A stretch of 27,791 nucleotides of DNA from Bdellovibrionia bacterium (lineage in GTDB: Bacteria > Bdellovibrionota > UBA1018). Below the pieces are notes generated by a model. It worked only from the letters and a program-made list of their open reading frames with translations. It was not told the DNA's origin and made no database searches. The translations under genes were made by a program, and so were the position numbers. Where the stretch lies: contig JBJMMA010000068.1 in assembly GCA_045805065.1 (NCBI GenBank), positions 1-27,791 of the forward strand. Direction: 5' to 3'. Numbering within the stretch: position 1 is the stretch's first letter; every line of letters begins with the position of its first letter. Shown here piece by piece: positions 4,978 to 26,019 of this stretch.

Positions 4978-4985
4978 AGGGTCAG

Positions 4986-5711: not shown

Positions 5712-5716
5712 AAAAA

Positions 5717-5742: not shown

Positions 5743-5770
5743 TCCTTACGGTGTACAGAGTGCTTTCAGA

Positions 5771-6688
5771 TTATTGTGCCAAACCCGAACTCAATCCCGG
5801 GCTGTCCACGAAAGTAGCGGTCACGGACTTCTCCGCTTTCTTAACTTGAGTGGACGCAATGGCTCGCTCAGCAAGCTTAGGCGCCGAATGAATCACAGAA
5901 TCAACGCTCTCCAGTTTGGAAAAGACGTCGCTTTCTTTCAGCATTTTCTTTTCCTTGATCACGCGATTGATGAGTCCCAGGACGTCATCTTTAAAGACGG
6001 TGCAACCACTATCAGAAATCCGGTCACGATCTGCATAAGTGCGCTCGGAACCGTCTGGCTTTTGACTATACGGAAGAAACCACCCAAGCTTTTCATAATC
6101 TGGTGTGAGAATGAAAAGCGTATTAACGCTATTATGCTTAGAAATGTATTCAAGACTTTCGCTGTCAAAGTACCCTCCAATTGCAACCGAGAAAGTCCCC
6201 ATCACCTTTTCCAACTCAGCTAAGGCAGAACTGATTTCTGGATCCTGCTTGAAGTCTTTTATCGTCTTGAGCAATTGGCTTGCGCAATTATCATCGCTTT
6301 TTGCGGCAGCCTCTACGAATTCTTTACGCATTTCAGGCCCAAGAGTGGATTTAATTCTAGAGTATTCTCGAGCAAGGACAAAGGGTGGCATTTTTCCTTC
6401 AAAGTGCATAGGCCGACAGACCACTTTCCAAGTCGTCTGCGTCACCATACGTTCGTATCCGTTCCAATTGGAGTAAACACTGGACCGATAGCCGCTCTCG
6501 TAGCTCTCTACCACCTCGTTATTTTTGTTCATCACGCATTCGTCTTCGGCTAGTTTTTGCACATTGGAAACATCACCGGTTTTCTCAATTACGAAAGACT
6601 GTCTCTCTGCTGAGTAAGCACTCTGAGCAAAAAGACCAAAGACAAGCGAAACAAACAAAGCTCCTGTAACATTGCGGCTCTTTTTCAT
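5771..6688 (-). CDS. Hypothetical secreted protein.
   Basis: Start chosen at MKKSRNVTGALFVSLVFGLFAQSAYSA, a classic Sec signal peptide with an AYS-A cleavage site. AGAGGAG lies about 9 nt upstream. About 305 aa. No domain recognised. Confidence 0.6.
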   Translation of the reverse strand: MKKSRNVTGALFVSLVFGLFAQSAYSAERQSFVIEKTGDVSNVQKLAEDECVMNKNNEVVESYESGYRSSVYSNWNGYERMVTQTTWKVVCRPMHFEGKMPPFVLAREYSRIKSTLGPEMRKEFVEAAAKSDDNCASQLLKTIKDFKQDPEISSALAELEKVMGTFSVAIGGYFDSESLEYISKHNSVNTLFILTPDYEKLGWFLPYSQKPDGSERTYADRDRISDSGCTVFKDDVLGLINRVIKEKKMLKESDVFSKLESVDSVIHSAPKLAERAIASTQVKKAEKSVTATFVDSPGLSSGLAQ

Positions 6689-6811
6689 ACGATCAAAACT
6701 CCTCTGATTCGGAACAAGATCTTCCGACGCCACATCTCATTGAGCAAGGGATGCGCCAGCAGTAGATGCCAGTTCTTCCGAGAGCTTAGAGAATGAACCG
6801 TGAATTTGAAC

Positions 6812-6828
6812 TGTCTAAACTTTAGACA
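6812..6828. promoter_or_regulatory. 17-bp near-perfect palindrome TGTCTAAAcTTTAGACA. It is a candidate operator, about 125 bp upstream of the secreted-protein gene and downstream of ppc.
   Basis: Read directly from the sequence. There is no U-run on either side, so it is unlikely to be a terminator. Confidence 0.3.
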
Positions 6829-6877
6829 AGTGCTGAAGGAAGTTGATAGTCAGTCCGGGTAGATACAGACTGCGCGC

Positions 6878-9238
6878 TTATCCCGTCGTGAGCATTCCGC
6901 TCGCGATGCCTGTTACTGTTTCACGAGTCAAAAGCACATCACGGCTTCCGCGATTGGCGATCTGAAGAAGGTTGAGCGGATGAATCATCGGGGATCGCAA
7001 TCGGATACTTTCTCCCAACCACTCGCGGTACCAGAGATAGTCTTTCTGACCGGACACCTGGCGAAAGAAGTCCTTCACAAGCTCAAGTTCAGAGACAAAA
7101 TTTTGATAAGCCATCTCCACTTGCCTTGCAGGCAAGCCACTCTGCTCCAGATAGATTCTCCAAACAGGAAGCTCGATCTTGGCGAGCGTAAACCCGAGAA
7201 GCTTCACATAAGAGCGAAACAAGGCATCCTCTTTAAAGACACGCTTGAGCTCGCGCTTATCCTGAGAAGAAAGCTCAGACCAGGCGCCCCCCACTCCCCA
7301 CCACGTCGGAAAAAGAGTACGCGTCTGAGTCCAGCAAAGTACCCAAGGGATTGCTCGGAGCGAAGATAACGAAAGCGTGGCGGCACGCTTGGTAGGTCTT
7401 GATCCAATGCGAAGCTTTTGAAGATCTGAATAAGGCGTGGCTCGCTGAACCATTTCCAAAAACTCAGGAGAGCTCACCTGCTTGCGATAATAATGAGAGA
7501 CTCGATCTGCAAATCGCTGAAGCGTTCGCGAGGATCCCGGCTGTGTTTTGGATTTTGCGCGCGTCCGGCTTTCCCACTGCCCGACCACAGCTTCCATCTG
7601 TCGCTCAGTGATCTCAGGCGTCGAGAAAGCTCGCTCAACCATCTCGCCTTGGACGGTCACCTTATAAAGAGACAGCGCGCTCTTTGGCCAGCCTGCGGTC
7701 TGCTCTTCGATCGATCCGCCGCCTCGGTCAACGCTTCCGCCTGCGCCATGAAAGAAAAGCGGCGAGACACCTTTACTTCGACAGAGCCGATCCAGCGCTC
7801 GAATCGTTCTTGAAATGGCCAGGCGGCTTGGGAGCACTCCCATTTCCTTGGCAGAGTCCGAATAGCCCAACATCACTTCTAGGTACCCATTCCAATATGC
7901 CGGAATGGCCTTACGGATCTGTCGATCCGCAAGCATCGCACTCACGATCTCCTGAGAATGCTCCAGAGCGGAGGCCTGCTCAAAGAGAGGGATCACTGGA
8001 AGCTCGAGGTCCCCAAAAACACGTGTAACCAAATCACATGCCGCGCGGATATCGGCCATGTCGCGAGTCATGCTGATGACCATTCCGCGGGCGTACCATC
8101 GCGGATTTCCACCGCGCGATACTTGTTGAACTTTTTTCAGCATCCGCTCAATCGCAAAGCCCCGCTTGCTTTGAGTCTCAATCAGAACATCAGACGATTC
8201 TCGAAGCTCGAGCGGAATCACAAGCGCCGGAAAGACATGAAAGAGCTTTCTCAGCATCCGAAAAGAAGGATGCATCACATGGACAATGTCCAGATAAGAG
8301 CTGGCAAACTGGCGAAGGGCTGTCCTTAGCTTTTGAATTCGCCCCCCATCCCCTGCTTCGATCGTCTTGAGCCGGGAAAAATCACGAAAAACCGTGCGAT
8401 ACTGCTGCATCAGATTTTTCGATAAGGGTGAATGAGGCAAAAGAAGAAGACTCTGCTCAATCTCCTTAAGAAGGCTTTGCGTAAAGCGATGCAATCGGAT
8501 GCGCGAGGCATTTAAGCTTTGCTGAGTGGCTTTTTCAGTCACACCCGGATGGCCATCTTTATCTCCGCCCACCCAGCTTCTAAAATAAAAAGGCACTCTG
8601 TCATTTGCCGCCAGAATGGCTCGCAGGATCTCGGGCTTTAACAGAATCGAGTAAAGGTAGACCGCCTCGTCTTCAACGCTGGGTTTTCGGTTTCGAGCGA
8701 TCGGAACGCGCCAGGCGAGCTCAAGCTCATGCTCAAGCCTTGCATGAATTTTCTCCCAACCCGATTCTCCCTTCTCAAAGCCTTCCAGCAGAAGCTCTTG
8801 AATGCGATGAAAGAGCGCAACGTTTTCAGGAGATCTTGCTTCCGTCGGGTGCGCAGTCAGAACGGATACGATTCCATCGGGCACGCTTTGAAAACGCTTC
8901 TCAGATTGATCGAGAGTTTGAAGCTTCCGTCTCAACCGGTAAGTGCGCCAGGCATTTTCACAAGCGTTCATGAGCTCAAGGAGCAGAGAGAACGCATGTC
9001 CCACCGCGCGTCTCTGATCACGATCCAGGCGCGACAGTACTTCATAACGTCGAACAAGTCGTCGATGAGCTTGATCCGTCGAAAGGCCGCGAAGCGAAGC
9101 CATCTCTCGTCGGGTTGCCTCGATGATCTGATACTCTTTTTCACCGCGCTCACGGCGAATAATCTCCCCGAGGAGAGCACCCGAAGCGCTGACCATATGA
9201 CGAAGTTCGGGCGTAAGCTCAACGCGGTGCTGCAGCAT
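6878..9238 (-). CDS. ppc: Phosphoenolpyruvate carboxylase.
   Basis: Carries the PEPC signature motifs VLTAHPTE and GYSDSAKEMG...FHGAGGSVDRGGG. The C-terminus ends ...GMLTTG, close to the canonical ...NTG end. 786 aa. Confidence 0.9.
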   Translation of the reverse strand: MLQHRVELTPELRHMVSASGALLGEIIRRERGEKEYQIIEATRREMASLRGLSTDQAHRRLVRRYEVLSRLDRDQRRAVGHAFSLLLELMNACENAWRTYRLRRKLQTLDQSEKRFQSVPDGIVSVLTAHPTEARSPENVALFHRIQELLLEGFEKGESGWEKIHARLEHELELAWRVPIARNRKPSVEDEAVYLYSILLKPEILRAILAANDRVPFYFRSWVGGDKDGHPGVTEKATQQSLNASRIRLHRFTQSLLKEIEQSLLLLPHSPLSKNLMQQYRTVFRDFSRLKTIEAGDGGRIQKLRTALRQFASSYLDIVHVMHPSFRMLRKLFHVFPALVIPLELRESSDVLIETQSKRGFAIERMLKKVQQVSRGGNPRWYARGMVISMTRDMADIRAACDLVTRVFGDLELPVIPLFEQASALEHSQEIVSAMLADRQIRKAIPAYWNGYLEVMLGYSDSAKEMGVLPSRLAISRTIRALDRLCRSKGVSPLFFHGAGGSVDRGGGSIEEQTAGWPKSALSLYKVTVQGEMVERAFSTPEITERQMEAVVGQWESRTRAKSKTQPGSSRTLQRFADRVSHYYRKQVSSPEFLEMVQRATPYSDLQKLRIGSRPTKRAATLSLSSLRAIPWVLCWTQTRTLFPTWWGVGGAWSELSSQDKRELKRVFKEDALFRSYVKLLGFTLAKIELPVWRIYLEQSGLPARQVEMAYQNFVSELELVKDFFRQVSGQKDYLWYREWLGESIRLRSPMIHPLNLLQIANRGSRDVLLTRETVTGIASGMLTTG

Positions 9239-12267: not shown

Positions 12268-13557
12268 TTACCACAATTTCTGCAAGAGCGCGTCTGGGTA
12301 ATAGTGTTTTAAGATCGCAATGCTCGTATAGCCCTTCTCACCCATGAATTTGGCTCCAAGCTGGCACATTCCAACACCATGGCCATTGCCCCGTCCGCTC
12401 AATTGAAAGATCTGCGCCCCTTTTTCAAGTCCCAGGTAAATCTGAAAGGACGTGCTTTTGAGCCGTCCGGGCCCGATCCATTCGCGAAACTTAGGTGCGC
12501 TCAGCGGCAGCTCCATTCGATTGCCTGCCCAGAGCCAGACCGAGCGAACGGATAGCATACGAGAAAGGGAAACTGCGCCGGGCTTCAGATCGACAAGCTG
12601 CCCTTCCTGAATGATCCGCCGCCATTGCTTCGGCCATCCCGACTGCGCTCCATCTTCCAGGGCTCCCTGTCGAAGAAGTTTTTCGGCCTCAGTGGAAGTC
12701 AGGTTCAAGTTCCAGGCAAGCTTTGCATTGCCGGCGCAATAAGGACACGCCACGCGGTGCTTGAAGCCAGGAAACGAGTTGCCCCACACGTCCTGAGGCA
12801 ATTGGGTTTGCCCCGCACAGCTTGAGCTATAGAAGGCCTTGATCGGCGCAAGGCCTCCCGATCCATTCTTGGCAAGCAGGACCATGCCACGGGTTTTTTC
12901 GACGGCTCGCGAGCCACGATAATCCTCGCTGACATATCCATCGTAGACTTGATCTCTGACCGTTGCGTCGACGTCGTACCGGGGTTCCCTTCCCAAACGC
13001 CGCGCCTTCTCGTGGGCCTGGCGAATCTGATAGAGAGCATAGGTTCGCGCTGCAATGACCTGGGCCTGCACCGCTTCCGCGCTCCACTGAGAGGAGAACT
13101 CAGCGTTCACAAGTCCGCCTAAGTATTTTTCAATATCGAGCTCATTAACGACTTCGCAAAGTGATCCGACCGAGTGAATGCGGATCTCATCCCGATAAGG
13201 TTTTCCATGATAGTGAATCATGCCCGCGGGAGATTGAATGCTCACAGGCCCCTTGAGCGTGAGCGTTGCGCCCCCATCTGCTGGAATCGCACGGATGCGT
13301 CCGTCCTGGCAGCGAAACGTCCACTCACTGGACTGGGATGGCGCACTTGCCAGCGTGCGAGATGCGCTTTGGAAAATTCTCAGATCAAATCCACGAATCG
13401 CCACTTTTGAAGCAGACTCAGAGAGCCTGACGCGAATGCGTGCAGGCCCAGTGCTTTGACTCGGCGGAATAAGTGACGCCTCAGCGCTGCAAATGGACAA
13501 AAAAAATGGAATGACTGAAACAGTCTGGAAAATCAGCTTCCTGCCGATGTTTTTCAT
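12268..13557 (-). CDS. SpoIID/LytB-domain protein (amidase activator-like), secreted.
   Basis: Signal peptide. Contains the SpoIID motif AEAVQAQVIAARTYALYQ and the C-terminal GHGVGMCQLGA. It lies 15 bp upstream of queA on the same strand, so the two are probably an operon. Confidence 0.8.
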   Translation of the reverse strand: MKNIGRKLIFQTVSVIPFFLSICSAEASLIPPSQSTGPARIRVRLSESASKVAIRGFDLRIFQSASRTLASAPSQSSEWTFRCQDGRIRAIPADGGATLTLKGPVSIQSPAGMIHYHGKPYRDEIRIHSVGSLCEVVNELDIEKYLGGLVNAEFSSQWSAEAVQAQVIAARTYALYQIRQAHEKARRLGREPRYDVDATVRDQVYDGYVSEDYRGSRAVEKTRGMVLLAKNGSGGLAPIKAFYSSSCAGQTQLPQDVWGNSFPGFKHRVACPYCAGNAKLAWNLNLTSTEAEKLLRQGALEDGAQSGWPKQWRRIIQEGQLVDLKPGAVSLSRMLSVRSVWLWAGNRMELPLSAPKFREWIGPGRLKSTSFQIYLGLEKGAQIFQLSGRGNGHGVGMCQLGAKFMGEKGYTSIAILKHYYPDALLQKLW

Positions 13558-13702
13558 GAATTGTTCCCGAGGCTTCCTGCCTCTGTCCTATTATGGCGCA
13601 ATTTTCTCGGCGCATCATCTCCATTCTTACTGACTCAACTTAGTCAACGTTTTGACGAAATTCGCTTAACGAACTTAAATTCCCGTGATTCAATGGCAGC
13701 AG

Positions 13703-15406
13703 ATGAGACGGAACTCTTCGCTGGCAAACCTAGGATTGGCATTCATCGCTTCTCTGCTCATTCATGCGCCCTCTTCGCAAGCAGATGCAACTCCAGACGG
13801 TCCAAATTGGAGCGAAGGAGCTCCGGTTTCAGTCGAAGGAAACGCAAATCGCTACGGACTCGCACCTACTGAATACAATCAATCGGTCCGCGCAGGAAAA
13901 CTTCATACTCAGGTCTACCCTGTTGAGGTGACCGGAATTCTTCCCCCCTTCAAGCCATTTGCGGCTGCAATGAATGGGGATTCCGAAAATCCACTGAGCA
14001 AAATTTTCCACTCGCTGGTTGGCAGCGTCGGGAAATTGAAATCGCTTGAAGACGTCCTGGACTGGTTGGGTCTGCATCCTTATCCCACGTCCGAGGACAC
14101 TGGAGTTTACACTTTCCCGTCCGCCGAAGAAGCACGGATCCCGGCGCATCGTGTAGGATTTGGAACGATCTCGTCACCCAATGGCGATGGCGAAGGATTC
14201 TCCATCAGCTGCGCAGCCTGCCACTCTTCAAGACTTTTCGGAAAAACAGTTCTGGGAATGACCAATCGTTTTGTCAAAGCGAACGAAGTTTTTCTGCTCG
14301 CCAAAGTGGGTACTCATCTCGTTACTCCACATATGTTGAAAACATTTGCCGGCGCTGACGCTGGCGAGATGAAGCTCTACTCGCGCGTTCAGAAAAATCT
14401 CGCATACGTTGGAGCAAAGCAGCCGGTATCGCTTGGACTCGATACTTCGCTTGCTCAAGTCGCGCTCTCTCTGGACCATCGTGCGCCAGATGATTATGCT
14501 GAAAAAGACCCACGCTACAGCCTGCGTCCTCGTCCGGACATGCTCACCTCTCAAGTGGCTGACAGCAAGCCTGCCGTGTGGTGGAACCTCAAGTATAAAA
14601 ACCGCTGGCTTTCGGATGGATCCGTCATCTCCGGAAACCCGATCTACACCAATATTCTTTGGAATGAGATTGGGCGCGGAACGGATCTTCATGAACTAGA
14701 GCGATGGTTCGAACAAAACCAGAGCGTGATTCGAGATCTGACGAGCGCCGTCTTCTCAACGGAGGCGCCACGCTTTACGGATTTCTTCCCTGCTGAGCAA
14801 TTTGATATCGCTGCAGCCAAGCGCGGCGAAGGGGTCTATCGTCAACGCTGCGCTCGCTGCCACGGTAATTACGACAAGGTCTGGAGCCTGGATATTGCTC
14901 AGGGCTTGCCGCTAGTGGATCAGCTGAGAACCTGGCGCGTGCGCTATCACGATCAGACTCCTGTAGTGGATGTGGGCACAGATCCGGGTCGCAGGCTTGG
15001 GATGGCTCCGCTTGAGCGTCTGAACGATCTTGCGATCTCAAAGAAGATCGGTGTCGTGATTCAGAAGCAGGATGGCTATGTACCACCACCGCTCGTTGGA
15101 ATCTGGGCCCGCTGGCCTTACTTCCACAACAATTCGGTTCCCTCGCTCTGCGCGGTTCTCACTCGCCATGAGATGCGCCCCGAGAAATATTCCGCGGTTG
15201 AAGCAGATGATCCGGCACGCGACTTTGACAGCGACTGCAACGGCTATCCTGGTCAGCCGGTCAGCAAGGTTCGAAGTATTTTTGATACCTCACGGCCAGG
15301 GATGCGAAACACCGGCCATGATGAGGGAATCTTCCTGAAAAACGGGAAAGAGCTTTTGACTCGCGAAAACAAGGAAGACTTGATTCGTTTTCTTCAGACA
15401 CTCTAA
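13703..15406 (+). CDS. Secreted c-type cytochrome with two CxxCH heme-binding motifs, family unassigned.
   Basis: Signal peptide MRRNSSLANLGLAFIASLLIHAPSSQA. The motifs are CAACH and CARCH, about 215 aa apart. An alternative GTG start exists at 13685. About 567 aa. Confidence 0.7.
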   Translation: MRRNSSLANLGLAFIASLLIHAPSSQADATPDGPNWSEGAPVSVEGNANRYGLAPTEYNQSVRAGKLHTQVYPVEVTGILPPFKPFAAAMNGDSENPLSKIFHSLVGSVGKLKSLEDVLDWLGLHPYPTSEDTGVYTFPSAEEARIPAHRVGFGTISSPNGDGEGFSISCAACHSSRLFGKTVLGMTNRFVKANEVFLLAKVGTHLVTPHMLKTFAGADAGEMKLYSRVQKNLAYVGAKQPVSLGLDTSLAQVALSLDHRAPDDYAEKDPRYSLRPRPDMLTSQVADSKPAVWWNLKYKNRWLSDGSVISGNPIYTNILWNEIGRGTDLHELERWFEQNQSVIRDLTSAVFSTEAPRFTDFFPAEQFDIAAAKRGEGVYRQRCARCHGNYDKVWSLDIAQGLPLVDQLRTWRVRYHDQTPVVDVGTDPGRRLGMAPLERLNDLAISKKIGVVIQKQDGYVPPPLVGIWARWPYFHNNSVPSLCAVLTRHEMRPEKYSAVEADDPARDFDSDCNGYPGQPVSKVRSIFDTSRPGMRNTGHDEGIFLKNGKELLTRENKEDLIRFLQTL

Positions 15407-15414: not shown

Positions 15415-16020
15415 TTAATTTGCGTAAGCAAGTTCCTGAGCTTCGCGACGGATCTGATAGACGCCCGAGTGGATGTTCTTCACATAGCGCTTCACGGAAG
15501 CCGGATTTGGCTTATGCTTGCGGCTCATACGATTGAACTTGGTCGGGCCCATGTTGTAAGCAGCCAGGTAAGAGTGCGACTTGGTGTATTTGCCGCGAAG
15601 ATAAGAAAGATATGCAATGCCTACGGAGAGATTCACCGTCGGATTGTGAAGGTCCTGCGCGTGATGGTAGGTGCGGATGCCTTCTTTCTTTGCAATGAAT
15701 CCGGCTGTTTTCGGCATGATCTGCATCAAGCCAACCGCGCCCACAGAAGAGGTCGCGTCCTTATCGAAGCTGCTTTCAGTTGCGATCAGGGAAAGAACTG
15801 AAGAGACAGAGAAACCATATTTGCGGCAAAGCTTGAAGAGATGAGTCGTCAAGCCATGGACCTGGACTGAATTCATTCCATCCATGCGCTCTGAGAGAAG
15901 CGCTTCGACTTCGCGAACATTCATGTCTTCGGCATTAGCGTTGAGGTTCGTTGCATGGAAGCTCGAGATCGCCATGCCGATTGCCAAGCTGAGAATCGAG
16001 ATCGATTGGATGTACTTCAT
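15415..16020 (-). CDS. Lytic transglycosylase (SLT domain, MltE/EmtA-like).
   Basis: Start at MKYIQSISILSLAIG, with AGGAGA about 8 nt upstream. The SLT motifs are ESSFDKDATSSVGAVGLMQIMPKTA and AAYNMG. The tracker ORF extends to 16203, but the upstream part has no RBS or signal logic. Confidence 0.8.
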   Translation of the reverse strand: MKYIQSISILSLAIGMAISSFHATNLNANAEDMNVREVEALLSERMDGMNSVQVHGLTTHLFKLCRKYGFSVSSVLSLIATESSFDKDATSSVGAVGLMQIMPKTAGFIAKKEGIRTYHHAQDLHNPTVNLSVGIAYLSYLRGKYTKSHSYLAAYNMGPTKFNRMSRKHKPNPASVKRYVKNIHSGVYQIRREAQELAYAN

Positions 16021-16064
16021 AATTCGGGTTCTCCTGCTATCGAATGCTTTTCTGCATCCGACAC

Positions 16065-16092
16065 TTACTAGATAGAGCACCGAACGTGCCAA
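16065..16092 (-). promoter_or_regulatory. Candidate sigma70-type promoter for the SLT gene (TTGGCA-N16-TAGTAA on the minus strand).
   Basis: Reverse complement of 16087-16092 is TTGGCA. There is a 16-nt spacer. Reverse complement of 16065-16070 is TAGTAA. This sits about 45 bp upstream of the ATG. Confidence 0.3.
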
Positions 16093-16458
16093 ACGACCCC
16101 CCAACAACCATCGATTCTCATTGGTGAATTGATACTGGAGCGCAATTGACACATTGAATATACGTGCAGTGCCGTCAAAAAGTTGTCCAGTTTTTCCACT
16201 CACGTCGTTTAATTATGAGTTCTCTCATCTCGCTGAGCTCGTTTTTATCGATGCGTCAGTGCCGATTTAAAAGAAAACAGTGAATAGAATGTCGAAAATC
16301 GAGGCATCTTCGCATCACCGTGTCTTTCACGACACAGTCAGAGTGCCCTCTACAGACACCGGCAAAACATTCCCGTTCAGAAGATCCGTGATCTTCCGAA
16401 AGGCTTAGTGAGGCCACAACCACACTGGCCCCCGAGAGAAAACACGGAGGATTTCAAA

Positions 16459-16698
16459 ATGGACAAGACGACCAACGCAACTCAGAACGAAATGGAAAAT
16501 TCGGAAGAAAGCGTCTCGACGAATCCGTTCTTTGGTACCGCAAAGAATGTCATGGAACGTTACAATCACTGCACTCTCTGCGGTGCCAACCTCCACTTCA
16601 CCCACGTCACCGACTTCAGCCGCAATCTCACTCAAGAGATCGCCCGCTGCCCTGAGTGCGGCGTGAAGAACCGCCAAGTGCTGCACAAGCTTCAATAA
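16459..16698 (+). CDS. Small zinc-ribbon protein (CxxC...CxxC), 79 aa.
   Basis: Strong RBS ACGGAGGA 8 nt before the ATG at 16459. The protein begins MDKTTNATQNEMENSEE and contains HCTLCG...CPECG. The tracker's GTG start at 16408 is less likely. Confidence 0.6.
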   Translation: MDKTTNATQNEMENSEESVSTNPFFGTAKNVMERYNHCTLCGANLHFTHVTDFSRNLTQEIARCPECGVKNRQVLHKLQ

Positions 16699-16730
16699 AA
16701 ACTTTCTGTCCCACAACCACACAATAAAAA

Positions 16731-16770
16731 GGCCCTGCACTTCAATGAAATGCAGGGCCTTTCTTATTTC
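16731..16770. terminator. Bidirectional Rho-independent terminator between the zinc-ribbon gene (+) and paralog 1 (-).
   Basis: GGCCCTGCA-cttcaatgaaa-TGCAGGGCC with TTTCTTATTT downstream on the + strand. A5 lies upstream, which reads as a T-run on the - strand. Confidence 0.75.
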
Positions 16771-16797
16771 TAGTGGTCTATACTGCTGATCGAGCGA

Positions 16798-19551
16798 TCA
16801 ATTGCCGGGGACGATGTCCCAGGTAGGATCAACGGAGTAATCAGGCTTCACGGTGCGAGCCATGAACCGATTCCACGCCGCCTGAGCATTGGGTGCTCCA
16901 TCATCCACAATGACGGCAAGAGCTGGCTGAGAGTTTGATGGCATCCCCTCGGTAGAGGAAGAAGCTCCCACCATCTCGCCCACCTGAAGTCCAAGCTGTG
17001 TTGCCATGGCTTGGCTGCCACACGCAAGGCCTGCCGTTGCTGCATCGACCGTGTTCTTGTAAACATCACCAAAGCTTGTGAAGTACGGCGCCGTTGAGGA
17101 CGTGCGGATCGTCATATTGTAAGACGAGGCCTCAATCCAGCAGTAGCTAGGATCAGTCATGATCGAGGTTTGATACTTCGAGAGAAACATCAGGAAGTTC
17201 TTGCTCGTCGTAAAACCCATTCTGTACGCGTTGCCAATGGCCCAGGTAAAGAAATGCTGCTGCCAAGGCGCCATCCCCACACCATTGTCATAGGCCATTG
17301 CGTTGTCAGTGATCACACCTAAGACATTGTCCGTGTGTTGAACATACTTATTGTCATACCAGGCAATGTTTTTTAAGAGCTTATCCGTAAAGTAAGCCTT
17401 GTACGGATGAGCATCCGGCATGATGTAGGCGTTCTCCTCCAGAGTTCTCAAACTCCAGGCCTGACCCCGCACCTGATCAGGGGTGACCAAGCCATCCGAA
17501 AAACTGCGATAAGCCGGGAGATACTTAAACAAGTCGTAAGCCCCCCAGAACATCATCTCCTCAAGAAGGAAATAGTCTCCCGAGATGAGATAAGGATAAT
17601 AGACGAGAGATGGTGCATGAGCGGTGTCCTCCGTGTACGGAGTGTTGCAGTCGGAGGCACACGCTGGAAAACCCTCATATTTGCCGGTGGCAGGATTGAC
17701 CTTGTCACCGTAATTTCCCAAAAGTGCTGCATAAGGATATCGATCAATACTGACGGGAAGATCAGTATCCACATCGCGATAGTGGATGGACCAGGAGCCA
17801 GACTGAATCCCATTCCCTACCGCCACAGGGTACATGCGCGGATCTTGAGAGATGACATGGATTGCGTTCCAAGACGGCAGAGGTCCAATGTCAGGGCGCC
17901 CGCCTGTGGTTGGCATATAGGCCACAACAGTTCCCACCTGCATCAGGCCATTTTTCGTGCTCCATTGATTGACCCAATCTGCGATTGCGCTGTCGGCAAT
18001 CTTGAGATTTGGATCGTAGTGTGGAACAGCTGGTGAGCTTAAGAGGAACTGGGGATTGAGTCCTACCGTCACATTCGACTGCGTTCCATAATTGAAAGTA
18101 CGGTACCAGCGAGAGTGCGCATAGTGTGGCACGGCTGCTTGTGAGAGTACCGTTTGTCCCCCCACCTGCACCTGCAAATCATAGGTGACGTTGGCAGGAG
18201 CCGTATACGCGTTCGAGTTTTCCACAGCAACGCCTACTCGCGCACTTGTTCCGCCCTGATAAGCACGCACATAAAAGCGTGCATGAAGAAGCGGGTGTGC
18301 TGTACCATTTGCCGTCAGAGGAACTTTAAAAAGTCCTTCCGTCGCCAGTGCACCCTGAAGCCAAGTGCCCTTTTGCATCGATGCGTAGTTACTTGCATTC
18401 AGAGTCGCCTGATAAGCAGTGCCGCTGATCGTGACGCTCACAGAGGTCGTAAAGCCCTTACTAAAGAGCGTTGCGATATCAACTGACGTTTGTGAAGCAG
18501 CTTGTGCCGCTACAACATCCAGGCTCATCATCGCCCCTGCTCCAATTTGAGGCAGAACTGCGGTTACGATTGCATGTCTTGCGGAGCCGTCGTCATGTTT
18601 GGCTTTGATTTCAAACTGGGTCGGAATGATGCTTTGGTTGCTTGAATCTCTTAAAATCGCAGAAGTTCCAGAAGGCAGCATGCCCTTAGGAAATGGAATG
18701 CCAAACGTGATCGGCACATTGCTTTGTGCGACCGTGCTTGAGGTTGCATAGACTTTGATGTCCGTGATTTTTGAGCCCACGGAAACGGGAGGCAACACCG
18801 TGGGTGACGGCATCGGTGAAGGTGAAACTGACGGTGATGCCGTTGGAGACGGAGATACTGTCACTGTTGGACTAGGTGATGGAGGTGGCGTCGCCGAACC
18901 CGACATATCCACGTCGCATTCTTTTGCAAAGCCTGCCGCTGGATCACCGAAGACTGCATTGGTACAGGCGATGCTGCTTGTAGCGGTTTTAGTGTACCAA
19001 CTTGAGCCCGCTCCGTAGCGAACAGTGTGCGTTCCGCTAAAAGCACAGGTGCCGTTTTCGATAGCGCATTTTACCCAGTTGGAACTTGGAGTTGGAGATA
19101 CGGTCACCGTTGGACTAGGTGACGGTGTCACGGGACTGGACATATCGACGTCGCATTCTTTCAAATAACCCGGCGCCGAATCACCAAATACGGAATTGTT
19201 GCAGCCAATACTGCCCGTTGCAGTCTTTGTGTACCAGCTTGAGCCCGTGCCGTAGCGAACAGTACGGGTTCCACTGATAGTACATGTGCCATTTTCGTCC
19301 GCGCACTTCACCCAATACGAACCTGGGACCAAGGTTGGCGTTGGAGACACGGTCACCGTTGGGCTGGGTGAAGGAGATGGGCGCGGTCTCCTGTTTTTCA
19401 CAACATCCGCAGTGGCCGAATCGCTCGCATCGCTATTCGAAAAAGCCCCAGTGAGCGAGGATTGATTGAAATTACATCCCGATGCCAAAGCTAGCAGCGG
19501 AGAAGTTAAAAGCAACGCAAGCGTGACTTTAACGTCACGATGGCTTTTCAT
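16798..19551 (-). CDS. Large secreted or lipoprotein-type protein, paralog 1 of a 3-gene tandem family. It has two extra N-terminal four-cysteine modules. Unknown function.
   Basis: Start chosen at MKSHRDVKVTLALLLTSPLLALASGC, with GAAGGGGG upstream. It has PSPSPT linkers. Two ~60-aa repeats follow: WVKCADENGTC...VRYG...WYTKTA...C...VFGD...KECDVD. A ~640-aa C-terminal region is shared with the genes at 19671 and 22377. Confidence 0.8.
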   Translation of the reverse strand: MKSHRDVKVTLALLLTSPLLALASGCNFNQSSLTGAFSNSDASDSATADVVKNRRPRPSPSPSPTVTVSPTPTLVPGSYWVKCADENGTCTISGTRTVRYGTGSSWYTKTATGSIGCNNSVFGDSAPGYLKECDVDMSSPVTPSPSPTVTVSPTPSSNWVKCAIENGTCAFSGTHTVRYGAGSSWYTKTATSSIACTNAVFGDPAAGFAKECDVDMSGSATPPPSPSPTVTVSPSPTASPSVSPSPMPSPTVLPPVSVGSKITDIKVYATSSTVAQSNVPITFGIPFPKGMLPSGTSAILRDSSNQSIIPTQFEIKAKHDDGSARHAIVTAVLPQIGAGAMMSLDVVAAQAASQTSVDIATLFSKGFTTSVSVTISGTAYQATLNASNYASMQKGTWLQGALATEGLFKVPLTANGTAHPLLHARFYVRAYQGGTSARVGVAVENSNAYTAPANVTYDLQVQVGGQTVLSQAAVPHYAHSRWYRTFNYGTQSNVTVGLNPQFLLSSPAVPHYDPNLKIADSAIADWVNQWSTKNGLMQVGTVVAYMPTTGGRPDIGPLPSWNAIHVISQDPRMYPVAVGNGIQSGSWSIHYRDVDTDLPVSIDRYPYAALLGNYGDKVNPATGKYEGFPACASDCNTPYTEDTAHAPSLVYYPYLISGDYFLLEEMMFWGAYDLFKYLPAYRSFSDGLVTPDQVRGQAWSLRTLEENAYIMPDAHPYKAYFTDKLLKNIAWYDNKYVQHTDNVLGVITDNAMAYDNGVGMAPWQQHFFTWAIGNAYRMGFTTSKNFLMFLSKYQTSIMTDPSYCWIEASSYNMTIRTSSTAPYFTSFGDVYKNTVDAATAGLACGSQAMATQLGLQVGEMVGASSSTEGMPSNSQPALAVIVDDGAPNAQAAWNRFMARTVKPDYSVDPTWDIVPGN

Positions 19552-19670
19552 AATACCCCCTTCATTCAAAACTGACTTTTGCAGAGTCCATCGGCGAGCA
19601 CTGGCGCAACCCCCGTTACGCGCAGTACTTCCCTTTTACATGACTTCTGTTAAGCCTTTCTTACGATCGA

Positions 19671-22019
19671 TTAATTGGCAGGCACAATAGCCCAAACAGG
19701 TTCCGTGCTGTAATCCGGCTTCACGCTGCGAGTCATGAACTTCGTCCATGTCGCTTGAGCGTTCGGCATTGCGGTATCCACAAGAATCGCAAGAGCCGGC
19801 TGAGAGTTAGATGGATAGCCTTCGGTCGAGGATGAGTAACCTACCATCTCCCCTACCTTGAGTCCCAGAGCCGTTGCCATCTCCTGACTTGCGCAAGCAA
19901 GGCTTGAGATATTTGAGGCTACTGTGTTTTTGTACACGTCTCCGAAACTCGTGTAGTACGGGGATGTCGAGGACGGACGGATATTCATGCTATAGGTAGA
20001 TGCTTCGATCCAGCAATAGTTTGGGTCCGTCATGAGCGAGATTTGATACTTCGAGAGGAACGTCAGGAAGTTCTTGCTCGTCGTAAAGCCCATTTTGTAC
20101 GCGTTCCCGATGGACCACGTGAAGAAGTGCTGCTGCCAAGGAGCTATCCCCGTCCCACTGTTGTACGCCATGGCAGAACCATTGGTAATAACGCCAAGAA
20201 CATTGTCCGTGTTTTGAACATACCTGGTGTCATACCAGGCAAGGTTCTTGAGAAGCTTATCCGTGAAGTACGCTTTGTACGGATGAGCATCGGGCAAGAT
20301 ATAAGCGTTATACGTCAAATCGCGTAAGCTCCATGCCTGACCACGAACTTGGTCACTTGCGACAAGTCCGTCTGCATGATTGCGATAGCCCGGATTGCTT
20401 TCAAACAACTCATACGATCCCCAGAACATCATTTCTTCGAGAAGATAATAATCTCCCGTGATCAGATAAGGATAGTAGGCTAGCGAAGGCTCGTGTGAGG
20501 TGTCATGCGAGTATGGAGTGCTGCAAGTGGATGCACACGCTGGAAACGCTTCATACTGCTTAGTCGTTGGATTATAGGTATCTCCATAGTTTCCATAGAT
20601 CGTCGCATAAGGATAACGATCAATGCTGAGCGGAAGATCGGTATTGACATCGCGATAGTGCATCGACCAAGTGCCCGACTGAATTCCAGTTCCCACGCTT
20701 ACATCGTAAGCACGTGGATCTTGCGAGAGCACATGGATTGCGCTCCAAGAAGGAAATGGTCCGATGTCTGGGCGCCCGCCCGTCGTTGGCATGTAGGCAT
20801 TGACTGGTCCGACCTGCATCAGCCCGCTGCTTGAGCTCCATTGGCTTGCCCAATTTGCGATTGCGCTGTCTGCGATCTTCAAAGCTGGATCGTAATGAGG
20901 TACGGCCGGAGAGCTCAACAGGAACTGAGAATTGAGCATTACAGTCAAATTAGGTTGCACGCCGTAATTGAACACGCGGTACCAGCGAGAGTGATGATAG
21001 TGAGGAACGGCTGCTTGCGAGAGAACGGTCCTTCCTCCCACTTGCACTTGCAGGTCATAAGTCACATTGGCAGGTGCCGTGTAAGCGTTTGTGTTTTCTA
21101 CCGACACGCCCACGCGAGCGCTCGTTCCGCCTTGAAAGGCCCGAACGTTGAATCGAGCATGAAGAAGCGGATGCGCGGACCCATTGGCAACGAGCGGTAC
21201 TCTAAAGAGCCCTTCTGTAGCGAGCGCGCCCTGAAGCCAGGTGCCCTTTTGCATCGACGCGTAGTTGCTTGCGTTCAACGTCGCTTGATAAACGACGCCA
21301 CTGATCGTGACACTCACCGAAGTCGTAAAACCTTTGCTAAAAAGCGTTGCGACATCAACTGGCGTCTGCACAGCAGCTTGTGCGGCTACGAGATCCAAGC
21401 TCATCGTTGCACCTGCACCAATTTGAGGCAGGACTGCGGTCACGATCGCATGTCTTGCTGAACCATCATCGTGCTTTGCTTTGATCTCAAATTGAGTCGG
21501 AATGATGCTTTGGTTGCTTGAATCTCTTAAGACCGCAGAAGTTCCAGATGGCAGCACGCCTTTCGGAAACGGAATGCCAAACGTGATCGGCACATTGCTT
21601 TGAGAAATTAAACTTGAGCTCGCGTTGACTTTGAGGTCAGTGATCTTTGAGCCAATGGAAGCAGGAGGCACCACCGAAGGCGAAGGCAGTGGAGTTGGAG
21701 AAACAGATGGTGACGACGTCGGACTTGGCGATGGTGAAACCGAAGGTGACACCGATGGTGACGCCGAAGGCGATGATGAAGGCGTTGGAGATGGCGATAC
21801 AGACGGCGACGGGGATGGAGACACCGATGGTGACGGGGATGGGTGTGGATGTGGCTTCTTCCTTGCCAAAGCATCCACAGAGGACGAACCGCTCGCATCG
21901 CGATTCGAATAATCTCCTGAGAGCGAGGACTGATTAAAATTACATCCCGATGCCAGAACCAGAAGCGGAGACGTCAGAAGCAAAGTAAGCGACACATTAA
22001 AACTTAATTGGCTCTTCAT
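19671..22019 (-). CDS. Large secreted or lipoprotein-type protein, paralog 2. Unknown function.
   Basis: Start chosen at MKSQLSFNVSLTLLLTSPLLVLASGC, with GGGGAATGGGG upstream. It has a long SPSPSV linker. The conserved C-terminal region is about 80% identical to paralog 3. Confidence 0.8.
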   Translation of the reverse strand: MKSQLSFNVSLTLLLTSPLLVLASGCNFNQSSLSGDYSNRDASGSSSVDALARKKPHPHPSPSPSVSPSPSPSVSPSPTPSSSPSASPSVSPSVSPSPSPTSSPSVSPTPLPSPSVVPPASIGSKITDLKVNASSSLISQSNVPITFGIPFPKGVLPSGTSAVLRDSSNQSIIPTQFEIKAKHDDGSARHAIVTAVLPQIGAGATMSLDLVAAQAAVQTPVDVATLFSKGFTTSVSVTISGVVYQATLNASNYASMQKGTWLQGALATEGLFRVPLVANGSAHPLLHARFNVRAFQGGTSARVGVSVENTNAYTAPANVTYDLQVQVGGRTVLSQAAVPHYHHSRWYRVFNYGVQPNLTVMLNSQFLLSSPAVPHYDPALKIADSAIANWASQWSSSSGLMQVGPVNAYMPTTGGRPDIGPFPSWSAIHVLSQDPRAYDVSVGTGIQSGTWSMHYRDVNTDLPLSIDRYPYATIYGNYGDTYNPTTKQYEAFPACASTCSTPYSHDTSHEPSLAYYPYLITGDYYLLEEMMFWGSYELFESNPGYRNHADGLVASDQVRGQAWSLRDLTYNAYILPDAHPYKAYFTDKLLKNLAWYDTRYVQNTDNVLGVITNGSAMAYNSGTGIAPWQQHFFTWSIGNAYKMGFTTSKNFLTFLSKYQISLMTDPNYCWIEASTYSMNIRPSSTSPYYTSFGDVYKNTVASNISSLACASQEMATALGLKVGEMVGYSSSTEGYPSNSQPALAILVDTAMPNAQATWTKFMTRSVKPDYSTEPVWAIVPAN

Positions 22020-22290
22020 AATACTACCCCATTCCCCAGACTGACTCGTTCGCCGCAGCAACCTTGCCAGCCTTGAAATAAAATTTAACTCTTACCCGAC
22101 TGTTTTGCTATGTTTATTTACAACTCGACAAATCTTGGACAGGTCAATTTGGACAGAGGCTTGGGAATTGATCTTAGAAAACGAAGCTCTCAACCAAGGC
22201 ATTCAATGTGTCCATCCCATGCTGTGTCGACATTAACAAAATCGCCAGAGTGAAGTGCTACGCGTGACAAGAGAAATTAGTTTCGCAAAA
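22020..22290 (-). repeat. Copy A of a duplicated 5' regulatory or leader region, upstream of paralog 2.
   Basis: Aligns base-for-base, with a few substitutions, to 24705-24930 and then more loosely out to about 25085. The shared 14-mer GAAATTAGTTTCGC occurs at 22274 and 25069. Contains TTGGACAG at 22135 and 22149. Confidence 0.75.
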
Positions 22291-22297
22291 GTTTCAA

Positions 22298-22343
22298 GGG
22301 CGCATCCCGGTGATTAAAAATCACCCGGATGCGCCCCCTTTTT
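22298..22343. terminator. Perfect 18-bp-arm hairpin with a flanking T-run, between the stop of paralog 3 and the paralog 2 promoter. Probable terminator, possibly bidirectional.
   Basis: GGGCGCATCCGGGTGATT-aaa-AATCACCCGGATGCGCCC. It is followed by CCTTTTTAA on the + strand and preceded by GTTTCAA. Confidence 0.6.
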
Positions 22344-22376
22344 AACTCCAGAGAACTCAGCCCATATTACGAGCTA

Positions 22377-24704
22377 TCAATTAGCAGGCACAATAGCCCA
22401 GACAGGCTCCGTGCTGTAATCAGGCTTCACGCTACGAGACATGTACTGATTCCATGCCGCTTGAGCGTTAGGCGCTCCACCATCGACAAGGACGGCAAGA
22501 GCTGGCTGAGAGTTTGATGGAAAGCCTTCGGTCGAGGAAGAGTATCCCACCATCTCCCCTACCTTGAGTCCCAAAGCCGTTGCCATCGCCTGACTTCCAC
22601 ACGCAAGACTTGAGATCGTCGGATCGACTGTGTTTTTGTACACGTCTCCGAAGCTCGTGTAGTACGAAGTCGTCGAGGATGCTCGAACATTCATGCTATA
22701 AGCGGATGCCTCAATCCAGCAATAATTTGGATCTGTCATGATCGAGGTTTGAAATTTCGAGAGGAACGTCAGGAAGTTCTTACTCGTAGTAAAGCCCATT
22801 CTGTACGCGTTCCCAATGGACCACGTAAAGAAGTGCTGCTGCCAGGGAGCCATGCCTATGCCGCTGTTGTAAACCATTGCAGCATCCGTGACGATGCCTA
22901 GGGCATTGTCCGTGTTCTTGACATACTTGTTGTCAAACCAGGCAAGATTCTTCAAAAGCTTGTCCGTAAAATATGCTTTGTAAGGGTGATCATCGGGCAA
23001 GATATAAGCGTTTTCCGAGAACGATCTGAGATCCCAGGCCTGACCGCGAACCTGCTGATGGAAAACGAGGCCATCGCTGAAGTTACGGTAATAGGGATTG
23101 AACTCGAACAAATTATAAGCTCCCCAGAACACTAATTCTTCCAAAAGATAGTAATCTCCCGTGATGAGATAAGGATAGTAAACCAGCGATGGCTCATGCG
23201 CGGGATCATGCCTGTACGGAGTCGTGCAATCCGAAGCGCATGCTGGGAAATCCTCATACTGCTTGGTGACCGGGTTATAGGTATCGCCATGAGTGGCGTA
23301 AATCCCAGAATACGGATAACGATCGATACTCAACGGAAGATCGGTAGCCGTATCGCGATAGTGCATCGACCACGAACCTGCCTGAATCCCCGTTCCAACA
23401 GTGACATCATACATGCGTGGATCCTGAGAAATCACATGCATTGCGCTCCAAGAAGGCAGTGGACCGATGTCCGGACGTCCACCCGTCGTTGGCATGTAGG
23501 CGACCACTGGACCAATCTGCATGAGACCAGAGCTTGTGCTCCATTTGCTTGCCCAATCGGCAATTGCACTCTCGGCAATTTTGAGACTTGGGTCATAGTG
23601 TGGAACAGCTGGCGAGCTTAAGAGGAACTGAGGATTCAGTCCCACTGTCACATTAGGCTGCGTTCCATAATTGAAAGTACGGTACCAGCGCGAGTGTGCA
23701 TAGTGTGGCACTGCCGCTTGCGAAAGAACGGTCCTTCCTCCCATCTGCACTTGCAGGTCATAGGTCACGTTAGAAGGAGCCGTGTAAGCGTCCGTGTTTT
23801 CCACCGCAACGCCCACGCGCGCGCTCGTTCCGCCCTGATAAGCACGCACATAAAAGCGCGCATGAAGAAGCGGATGAGAAGATCCATTTGCAGTCAAAGG
23901 TACTTTGAAGAGTCCTTCTGTTGCCAGTGCACCCTTAAGCCAGGTGCCCTTTTGCAGTGATGCGTAGTTGCTTGCGTTCAACGTCGCCTGATAAACGACG
24001 CCACTGATCGTGACACTCACCGAGGTCGTAAAACCTTTGCTAAAGAGAGTTGCGACATCGACTGGCGTCTGCACAGCCGTTTGGGCCGCTACAAGATCAA
24101 GATTCATCGTTGCACCTGCACCGATTTGAGGCAGGACCGCAGTCACGATCGCATGTCTTGCTGAACCATCATCGTGCTTAGCTTTGATCTCAAACTGAGT
24201 CGGAATGATGCTTTGATTGCTTGGATCTCTTAAAACCGCAGAAGTTCCAGAAGGCAGCACGCCTTTTGGAAATGGGATCCCAAACGTGATCGGCACATTG
24301 CTCTGAGCGACCGTACTTGAAGTTGCATAGACTTTGATGTCAGTGACCTTTGAGCCAATGGAAGCAGGAGGTATCACCGAAGGCGAAGGCATGGGAGATG
24401 GCGAAACGGATGGTGAAGGCGATGGTTTTGGCGACGGAGATACCGACGGCGAAGGACTTGGCGATGGTGACACTGAAGGCGAAGGTGAAGGCGTTGGAGA
24501 TGGAGAAACAGAAGGTGATGGTGACGGAGTTGGGCGTGGCTTCTTTCTATTTAAGGCATCCACCGGGGATGAACCGTTTGCGTCACTATTCGAAAAGGCC
24601 CCAGAGAGCGAGGACTGATTGAAATTACACCCCGTTGCCAGAACCAAAAGCGGAGACGTCAGAAGCAAAGTAAGCGAAACATTAAAACTCAGTTGGTTCT
24701 TCAT
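22377..24704 (-). CDS. Large secreted or lipoprotein-type protein, paralog 3. Unknown function.
   Basis: Begins MKNQLSFNVSLTLLLTSPLLVLATGC. Long SPSPSV linker. 775 aa. Same C-terminal region as the other two paralogs. Confidence 0.8.
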   Translation of the reverse strand: MKNQLSFNVSLTLLLTSPLLVLATGCNFNQSSLSGAFSNSDANGSSPVDALNRKKPRPTPSPSPSVSPSPTPSPSPSVSPSPSPSPSVSPSPKPSPSPSVSPSPMPSPSVIPPASIGSKVTDIKVYATSSTVAQSNVPITFGIPFPKGVLPSGTSAVLRDPSNQSIIPTQFEIKAKHDDGSARHAIVTAVLPQIGAGATMNLDLVAAQTAVQTPVDVATLFSKGFTTSVSVTISGVVYQATLNASNYASLQKGTWLKGALATEGLFKVPLTANGSSHPLLHARFYVRAYQGGTSARVGVAVENTDAYTAPSNVTYDLQVQMGGRTVLSQAAVPHYAHSRWYRTFNYGTQPNVTVGLNPQFLLSSPAVPHYDPSLKIAESAIADWASKWSTSSGLMQIGPVVAYMPTTGGRPDIGPLPSWSAMHVISQDPRMYDVTVGTGIQAGSWSMHYRDTATDLPLSIDRYPYSGIYATHGDTYNPVTKQYEDFPACASDCTTPYRHDPAHEPSLVYYPYLITGDYYLLEELVFWGAYNLFEFNPYYRNFSDGLVFHQQVRGQAWDLRSFSENAYILPDDHPYKAYFTDKLLKNLAWFDNKYVKNTDNALGIVTDAAMVYNSGIGMAPWQQHFFTWSIGNAYRMGFTTSKNFLTFLSKFQTSIMTDPNYCWIEASAYSMNVRASSTTSYYTSFGDVYKNTVDPTISSLACGSQAMATALGLKVGEMVGYSSSTEGFPSNSQPALAVLVDGGAPNAQAAWNQYMSRSVKPDYSTEPVWAIVPAN

Positions 24705-25085
24705 ACTACCCCATTCCCCGGACCGACCAGCTCACTGCAGCAACTTTGCCAGCCCTGAAATAAAATTTAACTCTTACCCGACCTTTCTGCTATGTTTTTT
24801 TTACAGCTCAACAAACCTTGGACAGGTCTATTTGGACAGAGACTTGGGAATTGATCATAGAAAACGAAGCTCTCAACCAAAGCATTCAATGTGTCCATCC
24901 AAAGCTGGGTCAAAACAAACAAAACGAGATTCATTACACTGCGCGAATGTAACTAGCCTTCAGCCTGGATATCTTCCAAGTAATCACTCATGAGTCATTC
25001 TCCGTAAAGTGCTGCCTGGCGTACGGGTTCGCGCAAAACGCCAGAAATGAGTACTACGGGCGATGGCGAAATTAGTTTCGCTCGC
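24705..25085 (-). repeat. Copy B of the duplicated 5' regulatory or leader region, upstream of paralog 3.
   Basis: See copy A. TTGGACAG at 24818 and 24832, with the same 14-bp spacing. Confidence 0.75.
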
Positions 25086-25218
25086 CATCCATGCTTTTCC
25101 GTTCCCGTCCAAGCCAGTCTTATCTAGTGTTGATACCGAGAGTGTTACTTCCGCGGTGGCAGCAAGAAAGTCTCTCAAACTGCTTGAAGAAATCTCAGAA
25201 ATGGGATGAAACCGGGGC

Positions 25219-26019
25219 ATGGGTTCATCATTTTTGCCGCGCCGCGCGATCATCATGGGTCGCCGCCGTTCCATTTCTTCATCCTCAGCTGACTCTCAGC
25301 AAGCCGCTCCGCAAGCTTCAAACAATGAGCCTTTGTTGATGGAAACTGAGCCAAGCTTGGCGCCAAACGTTGCGGCAGCAGCTCTTCAGACAGCCACAGC
25401 ACCAAATCCAGTCGCCGCTCCAGCAAATGATTCCCTGGAACTCATCGCAGCGGACCTTCTCTGCCCTCCAGAAGCTCCTGAAACCGGCTGCCCTCGCTGC
25501 AAGCTCTGTCAGAGCCGCAAGAACCTGGTCGTCGGCGAAGGAAGCCCAAATGCTGAGCTTGTCTTTGTCGGCGAATCCCCGGGCGAACAAGAAGATCAGC
25601 AAGGCCGCCCTTTCGTGGGCAAAGCAGGTCAGCTTCTGGATCGCATGATTCAGGCGATGGGTCTTCAACGCGAGCAAGTCTATCTCTGCAACGTGATCAA
25701 ATGTCACCCGCCCGGAAACAGAAACCCTGAGGCTGATGAGATTGCAGCCTGCTCTCCTTTCCTGGCGCGTCAGCTGGACGTCATTCGCCCGAAAGTTGTC
25801 GTAGCGCTCGGAAAGTTTGCCGCACAGACGCTACTTCAAACCGAGGCACCGATCTCCAAACTCAGAGGAAACTTCTTTCCTTATCGGAATGGCGCAAAGC
25901 TCATGGCAACTTTCCATCCGGCCTATCTGCTTCGTAATCCCGAGAGCAAACGAGAAGCCTGGGAAGACCTTCAGCAGGTTGCGGCAGAACTCGGCATCAA
26001 AATTCCAAAACGCAGCTAA
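25219..26019 (+). CDS. Uracil-DNA glycosylase, family 4 (Fe-S type). The start codon is uncertain.
   Basis: The core reads CPRCKLCQSRKNLVVGEGSPNAELVFVGESPGEQEDQQGRPFVGKAGQLLDRM...NVIKCHPPGNRNP. The first ~70 aa are low-complexity Ala/Pro/Ser with no good RBS. Alternative ATGs exist at 25252 and 25339. Confidence 0.8.
   Translation: MGSSFLPRRAIIMGRRRSISSSSADSQQAAPQASNNEPLLMETEPSLAPNVAAAALQTATAPNPVAAPANDSLELIAADLLCPPEAPETGCPRCKLCQSRKNLVVGEGSPNAELVFVGESPGEQEDQQGRPFVGKAGQLLDRMIQAMGLQREQVYLCNVIKCHPPGNRNPEADEIAACSPFLARQLDVIRPKVVVALGKFAAQTLLQTEAPISKLRGNFFPYRNGAKLMATFHPAYLLRNPESKREAWEDLQQVAAELGIKIPKRS

Follow-up and report, generated by a model that had tools for sequence, protein, structure and literature searches.

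Three tandem lipoprotein genes of a Bdellovibrionia bacterium belong to a widespread, uncharacterised family with a predicted, remotely PL26-like fold

Introduction

What is encoded by three large, similar genes that stand head to tail in the genome of a Bdellovibrionia bacterium, and why are there three of them? The genes, which we call A, B and C, lie in a row on the minus strand of a 27,791-bp contig of a metagenome-assembled genome (MAG); the whole contig is referred to here as the window. A preliminary description of this DNA had read the gene products as exported proteins with a conserved region that fitted no recognised enzyme family, and had compared the array with amplified predation or host-interaction effectors under diversifying selection. 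We find that the array itself is ordinary, a tandem cluster of old paralogues. What stands out is the family to which the proteins belong: it is widespread and uncharacterised, Pfam covers it only in part, its predicted structure is remotely PL26-like, and it recurs in exosortase-A exopolysaccharide (EPS) loci and in phages.

Results

Three consecutive genes encode lipoproteins with a common body

The open reading frame (ORF) listing and its translations recovered three consecutive minus-strand genes of like architecture (Table 1), as had been described. Read directly from the sequence, the N-termini of A, B and C contain a hydrophobic signal peptide, LLLTSPLL(V/A)LA(T/S)GC, in which the lipobox cysteine is residue 26. 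The lipobox pattern [LVI][ASTVI][GAS]C is satisfied by all three proteins and by their three orthologues on a related metagenomic contig (L002). The signal peptide is followed by a linker, 89-95 aa long in A and B and composed to 72-74% of Pro, Ser, Thr and Val; the linker of C is 231 aa long with two extra modules counted in. The remainder is a conserved body of 660 aa in each protein that starts with (I/V)GSK(I/V)TD and ends with the C-terminal IVP(A/G)N, and every conserved motif block named in the preliminary description was found in A, B and C. With a DNA repeat finder, the three gene copies were detected 2876 and 2703 bp apart. Two of the array proteins are present at NCBI as ACJ763_05025 and ACJ763_05030, both labelled hypothetical.

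The body is modelled as a beta domain joined to an alpha-helical toroid

The conserved body proved to be claimed by no characterised family. PF19501 (PcRGLX_1st, a RIFT barrel) matched its first ~50 residues at 21.1-22.2 bits, at the threshold set by the gathering cut-off of 22.1. Of the 37 family members in our alignment, 36 matched PF19501 at E<=0.1 (lowest E 7.7e-7), with relatives reaching 38 bits, and no other Pfam family recurred among the 37. Searches of NCBIfam and of PDB sequences with the array proteins gave matches to the low-complexity linker alone; matches to SslE/AcfD and to PARP were rejected as compositional for this reason. A profile of the 37 members found nothing among PDB sequences. 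Database names of the homologues are all "hypothetical" or "RIFT barrel domain-containing", and the literature on PL26/PcRGLX, exosortase-associated hydrolases and the EBPR siphovirus held nothing on this family.

We modelled the body with AlphaFold2 on the 37-sequence alignment (predicted local distance difference test score, pLDDT, 90.6; predicted template modelling score, pTM, 0.92). Residues 1-240 of the model are all-beta and residues 241-658 are helical. The paired helices form a toroid, which by the model and fold searches belongs to the (alpha/alpha)6-toroid fold class; this fits the toroid lyase or glycosidase that had been guessed at. The best structural match, and the only one spanning both domains, was the PL26 lyase PcRGLX from Penicillium chrysogenum (PDB 5XQ3), for which product complexes exist as 5XQG and 5XQO. 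On this model the conserved body is probably a remote structural relative of PL26 exo-rhamnogalacturonan lyase. Identity over the structural alignment is 11%, ~190 query and ~410 target residues are unaligned, and the window proteins gave no sequence or profile match to the PDB chain even at E<=10. The body ends with the toroid and is ~220 residues shorter than PcRGLX (658 versus ~880-900 aa). By the sequence criterion of CAZy the body lies outside PL26, because its toroid has no detectable similarity to that of PcRGLX. No confident profile match to a well-characterised family was found, and the remote kinship to PL26 shows in structure only. The biological settings also differ, in that PcRGLX is a fungal pectin enzyme whereas the window proteins are bacterial lipoproteins of a family tied to bacterial EPS loci.

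Other enzymes matched the toroid only. These were GH88/GH105 unsaturated glycuronyl hydrolases, GH76 mannanases and PL5/PL15/PL17/PL35-type lyases, aligned over 230-270 residues at 6-12% identity with no sequence relationship and no motifs in common identified. The alignment of the 37 family members has 80 invariant columns that are rich in Arg, His, Tyr and Lys, a composition that would fit an anionic substrate. Among the invariant residues are R66/H67, H160, R166, R170, H217/R222, H331/R333, D383/H386, Y395, E406, R436, R443 and K459.

The family is widespread and recurs in exopolysaccharide loci and phages

In an exhaustive profile search, the family was matched at E<=0.001 by 4,976 clusters (50% identity), of which at least 2,318 also reached E<=1e-30. 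We confirmed 383 loci among 185,579 species genomes. Restriction of the family to one lineage, a possibility raised in the preliminary description, is refuted by these numbers. Many cluster members are multidomain proteins of 1,000-2,500 aa, and in some the body is present two or three times. Fusions in distant relatives involve Ig-like/PKD/Fn3, Laminin_G_3, right-handed beta-helix, Kelch and PG_binding_1 domains or a Peptidase_S74 tailspike chaperone. Counts of loci out of 80 refer throughout to the best 80 of the 383 confirmed loci. These 80 come mainly from Massilia, Telluria, Undibacterium and Noviherbaspirillum, and also from other Burkholderiales, Myxococcota, Gammaproteobacteria, Anaerolineales and one Bdellovibrio MAG. 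Tandem pairs occur in 5 of them, so tandem copies are not unique to the lineage of the window; the window and L002 were the only places where triplets were seen.

Across the loci, genes at most three positions away from the family gene were clustered. Some lineages, among them Undibacterium and Noviherbaspirillum, have the family gene inside exosortase-A/PEP-CTERM EPS loci with the order PrsR (TIGR02915), acyl-CoA ligase (TIGR03098), pyridoxal phosphate (PLP) decarboxylase (TIGR03099), family gene, GT4 glycosyltransferase and putative O-glycosylation ligase (TIGR03097). All of the named exosortase-A markers scored over their curated cut-offs, and at least one specific marker was present in 16 of the 80 loci. 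None was found within the 27.8-kb window. Thus, location in an exosortase-A locus is a trait of part of the family and not of the window locus. A gammaproteobacterial family gene lies within a Wzx/DegT/acetyltransferase/asparagine-synthase cluster, one in Telluria lies near genes for UDP-glucose dehydrogenase, an epimerase and a priming transferase, and one in Myxococcales follows a GT2 gene. Other loci have only lineage-specific neighbours or unrelated contexts. No operon partner is common to the whole family: no neighbour family extends beyond 24 of the 80 loci, and the recurrent ones are each confined to a subset.

One recurrent neighbour encodes a partner of ~390-440 aa, found at most three genes away in 17 diverse loci and mostly directly downstream on the same strand. 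It has faint beta-helix or Kelch character and belongs to no confident Pfam or NCBIfam family. The loci with this partner are from Anaerolineales, Myxococcota, Gammaproteobacteria and Oxalobacteraceae (examples are L088 10358-11548 and L089 10184-11440), and the window has no homologue of it. Some family proteins are themselves fused to Kelch or Beta_helix domains, which the partner faintly resembles. Of 24 Oxalobacteraceae loci, 18 have a dihaem cytochrome c gene directly upstream of the family gene (for example L001 8836-9774; the other 23 are also Massilia or Telluria loci). This cytochrome is unrelated to the RoxA-like dihaem cytochrome c of the window (13685-15406, plus strand), which is encoded three ORFs downstream of the array and is also present on L002. 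The cytochrome c neighbours could be a coincidence or a link to redox chemistry.

The family is also encoded by phages. Protein gp39 of EBPR siphovirus 1 (JF412302.1, L086, 8101-10440) is a full-length member, 31% identical, that matches PF19501 and retains MP.TGGR.DIG, H.RD, D.AH.PS and YxPYLITGD. It has no CxxxC pair, and a Cys replaces the otherwise invariant Tyr of the HYRD motif. Its gene sits between terminase and portal/head genes, with no identifiable tail module there, and adjoins the gene for gp40, annotated as a glycosyl hydrolase with Fn3 domains. A second phage protein (BFVD A0A6J5SAL0) matched the toroid with a Foldseek E of 1.9e-19. Membership in phage genomes, together with the one bacterial or prophage relative that has a Peptidase_S74 chaperone, is a likeness to phage polysaccharide depolymerases. 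Classical phage depolymerases are trimeric beta-helix tailspikes; unlike these, gp39 is not encoded in an identifiable tail module.

The three copies are old and under purifying selection

Over the body, A and B are 83.5% identical in protein and 80.5% in nucleotide sequence, A and C 81% and 78%, and B and C 80% and 76%. The earlier estimate for A and B, ~80% in protein and ~85% in nucleotide sequence, was slightly high for the nucleotides. One copy had also been described as more diverged and as carrying extra modules; the modules are present in C, whereas the divergence of its body is only marginal.

Using the Nei-Gojobori method, we obtained pairwise ratios of nonsynonymous to synonymous substitution rates (dN/dS) of 0.09-0.13 in the body and 0.17-0.30 in the signal peptide and linker, with dS between copies of 0.86-1.5. 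The ratio was far under 1 in each 60-codon window with estimable dS. Of the 80 family-invariant columns, 79 are kept in A, B and C, and the lone exception is an Ala-to-Thr change. Because of these dS and dN/dS values, we conclude that the copies are of old origin and evolve under purifying selection; nothing points to the diversifying selection that had been proposed. All three copies look functional. The most divergent part is the stretch of body codons ~330-450 (dN 0.16-0.27), which coincides with lower-confidence loops of the model and the first helices of the toroid. This stretch may set substrate specificity.

Contig L002 contains a like three-gene array (506-8530) followed by genes for SLT, a RoxA-like cytochrome c, SpoIID, QueA and a phosphatase. 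In a tree of the family, the Bdellovibrionia copies formed one tight clade with 77-90% mutual identity and ~47% identity to the nearest outgroup. The clade consists of window A-C, L002 genes 1-3, P0002, P0004, P0006 and P0008-P0010. Window A paired with L002 gene 2 (89%), B paired with P0002/P0004 (90%) and L002 gene 1 (84%), and C grouped near L002 gene 3, so that the first two copies appear to be in swapped order between the two contigs. From these pairings, the triplication is older than the split of the window and L002 genomes. It is thus an old triplication that is specific to this Bdellovibrionia clade.

Nucleotide identity was also compared by segment. Over body codons 220-550 the orthologue was closest, with values of 0.85-0.91 for A to L002 gene 2 and 0.79-0.82 for B to L002 gene 1. 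Over codons 0-220 and 550-660, A and B were closest to each other (0.83-0.88). The similarity of the ends of A and B, together with their common upstream region, indicates gene conversion within the genome that would homogenise the gene ends while the centres are kept distinct.

An upstream element and two small modules

As the preliminary description had noted, A and B were duplicated along with their upstream region. They share ~215 bp with ungapped identity above that of the coding sequences (Table 1). Equivalents of ~190 bp precede the L002 copies (about 318-508, 3098-3290 and 5785-5971), and a weak remnant alone is left in the 119-bp spacer in front of window C, such that the element precedes 5 of 6 gene copies across the two genomes. 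RNAalifold detected no covariation among the five copies (term +0.6; 1 of 37 pairs compensatory) and Rfam models matched 16200-25300 only by chance and below threshold. With both of these null, a structured RNA leader or riboswitch was rejected, and the element is more likely a promoter/operator with a leader. A TGGCA-N5-TGCT motif resembles a sigma-54 promoter; this candidate was rejected since by manual count its GG-to-GC spacing is 3 nt under the consensus. A sigma-70 scan upstream of the array genes found nothing.

The extra modules in the linker of C are an internal duplication of a ~56-aa unit with four cysteines; the DNA repeat finder placed the copies at nt 18887-19089 and 19124-19326, 74% identical. 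Over 142 aa they share 44% identity with the C-terminal end of a beta-helix-like Telluria protein (L001 15428-17230). That protein is encoded three genes downstream of the family gene. A GH5 protein and a fragment annotated as alpha-L-rhamnosidase also carry the 4-Cys module. A Pfam scan of the module gave no match. Against the rhamnose-binding (SUEL) lectin 5H4S only the C-terminal VFGDP..G..K aligned, with a whole-sequence E of 2.9e-4 and single stretches that were insignificant. From this distribution, the modules probably behave as a mobile carbohydrate-binding module (CBM).

Other features of the window

A 111-aa ORF between C and the SLT gene (16405-16740, minus strand) has no family match, and it is doubtful as a gene since its L002 equivalent is called as a 79-aa gene on the opposite strand. 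An 854-aa protein is predicted at 456-3020 on the plus strand; Pfam recognises in it only a short stretch of DUF4953 (Met-zincin), and it may be another large secreted hydrolase. Two minus-strand ORFs (244 and 320 aa) at 4986-6733 have only marginal Pfam matches (E ~0.1) and lie in the stretch with the lowest G+C content (0.46-0.49 versus ~0.52-0.55 elsewhere).

Table 1. Coordinates of the array genes, their domains and the associated elements in the window
Feature	Position	Strand	Remarks
Paralog A, 775-aa lipoprotein	22377..24704	-	ATG at 24704; signal peptide aa 1-25; Cys26 at nt 24627-24629; PS-rich linker aa 27-115
Paralog A, predicted domains	beta domain ~aa 118-357; alpha-toroid ~aa 358-775	-	Sequence and model
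N-terminal all-beta domain of A (model residues 1-240)	23634..24353	-	Start matches PF19501
Alpha-helical toroid of A (model residues 241-658)	22380..23633	-	MPTTGGRPDIG, HYRD, YYPYLITGDYYLLEE, VRGQAW.LR, APWQQHFF
Paralog B, 782-aa lipoprotein	19671..22019	-	ATG at 22019; architecture like A; Cys26 at nt 21942-21944; body from aa 122 (nt 21656)
Paralog C, 917-aa lipoprotein	16798..19551	-	ATG at 19551; Cys26 at nt 19474-19476; body from aa 258 (nt 18780)
First 4-Cys module of C (aa 80-135), candidate carbohydrate-binding module	19147..19314	-	Repeat finder and homology
Second 4-Cys module of C (aa 159-214)	18910..19077	-	Internal duplicate of the first; repeat finder and homology
Upstream element of A, presumed promoter and 5' leader	24705..24924	-	Conserved
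Upstream element of B	22020..22241	-	86-88% identical to that of A; also before all three L002 copies

Discussion

We consider it reasonably probable that the array encodes tethered PL26-like enzymes that cleave bacterial EPS. Cleavage by signal peptidase II and acylation at Cys26 would anchor each protein to a membrane, probably the outer membrane. The flexible Pro/Ser/Thr-rich tether (~90 aa, or ~230 aa in C) would then present a two-domain enzyme body in which a beta domain (a RIFT barrel with a beta-sandwich) at the N-terminus is joined to the (alpha/alpha)6-type toroid. This body is predicted to cleave a bacterial exopolysaccharide or capsule, probably an acidic, uronate-containing one, by beta-elimination or hydrolysis. 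We lean slightly towards a lyase mechanism over a hydrolase, since the sole two-domain structural relative of the model is a lyase and the invariant residues are basic. With three copies that differ at their centres, a broader range of substrates would be covered, probably through different specificities, and the two small Cys-rich modules of C probably bind carbohydrate. In Bdellovibrionia such enzymes may serve to breach the capsule of prey or a biofilm or floc matrix, or to remodel the cell's own EPS.

Proteins with these features might alter a polysaccharide but leave its chain uncut. A uronate C5-epimerase or sugar isomerase, acting by a lyase-like proton abstraction as AlgG or dermatan-sulfate epimerase does, is the form of this idea that we weighed, and we think it improbable. 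The top structural match, which is also the only two-domain one, is a lyase, the phage copies and the tailspike-chaperone fusion suit depolymerases better, and a predator with no visible EPS locus beside the array would have little use for three epimerases. There is also only a slim chance that the proteins are non-catalytic surface adhesins or glycan binders that use the toroid as a binding scaffold. The 80 invariant columns, many of them charged or aromatic and set in short motifs, are conserved across sequences that are 43-49% identical, which is the typical pattern of an active site; purifying selection is strong, and the appended CBM-like modules would be redundant if the body itself were the binder.

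The neighbourhood of the array points in another direction, as genes for an SLT lytic transglycosylase (15415-16203) and SpoIID (12268-13557) lie downstream both in the window and on L002, and one distant relative has a PG_binding_1 domain. The body could accordingly be read as taking part in peptidoglycan or cell-wall remodelling, for example during prey invasion. This is the reading to which we give least credit: of all the contexts examined, only the two Bdellovibrionia contigs have the SLT/SpoIID neighbourhood, and no known muramidase, amidase or peptidase was near the top of the fold matches. The original view of amplified effectors for predation or host interaction, under diversifying selection, draws on the identity of the organism as a Bdellovibrionia MAG, on the clade-specific triplication (77-90% identity inside the clade versus ~47% to the nearest outgroup) and on the central third of the body, which diverges more than the rest and stays distinct from copy to copy. 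However, dN/dS in the body is 0.09-0.13 and falls below 1 in all estimable 60-codon windows, the dS of 0.86-1.5 marks the copies as old, the same three are present in a second genome, and the family is found mostly in non-predatory soil and freshwater bacteria. We regard this view as very doubtful.

Tethered enzymes that cleave EPS, the reading we prefer, have parallels in known systems. Some EPS biosynthesis loci contain the gene for a dedicated glycanase or lyase, such as AlgL, PslG, PelA or BcsZ. This arrangement, in which a secreted or periplasmic cleaving enzyme is encoded among EPS synthesis genes, is matched by the family in 16 of the 80 loci. We know of no homology between the family and these four enzymes, and unlike them the window genes lie outside any EPS locus and are present in three copies. 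A bolder proposal, which we hold to be rather unlikely, is that the body founds a new lyase or glycoside hydrolase family for the floc-forming exosortase-A/PEP-CTERM EPS, and that Bdellovibrionia triplicated, diversified and tethered the enzyme to cut the matrix of its prey. If true, this would link a tool of a predator directly to the EPS system of its prey.

In our view the family is a candidate new one among the toroid carbohydrate-active enzymes, and not a categorically new system. If its activity is confirmed, it would probably form a new CAZy family, with at least 2,318 clusters (50% identity, E<=1e-30), none of which is characterised. Exosortase-A/PEP-CTERM loci underlie the flocculation of activated sludge and, in many Proteobacteria of soil and freshwater, the formation of biofilms, and the family would provide the first candidate enzyme for degrading or processing their polysaccharide. 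For predatory bacteria, a confirmed activity would suggest that surface-tethered, matrix-degrading enzymes belong to the equipment for attack.

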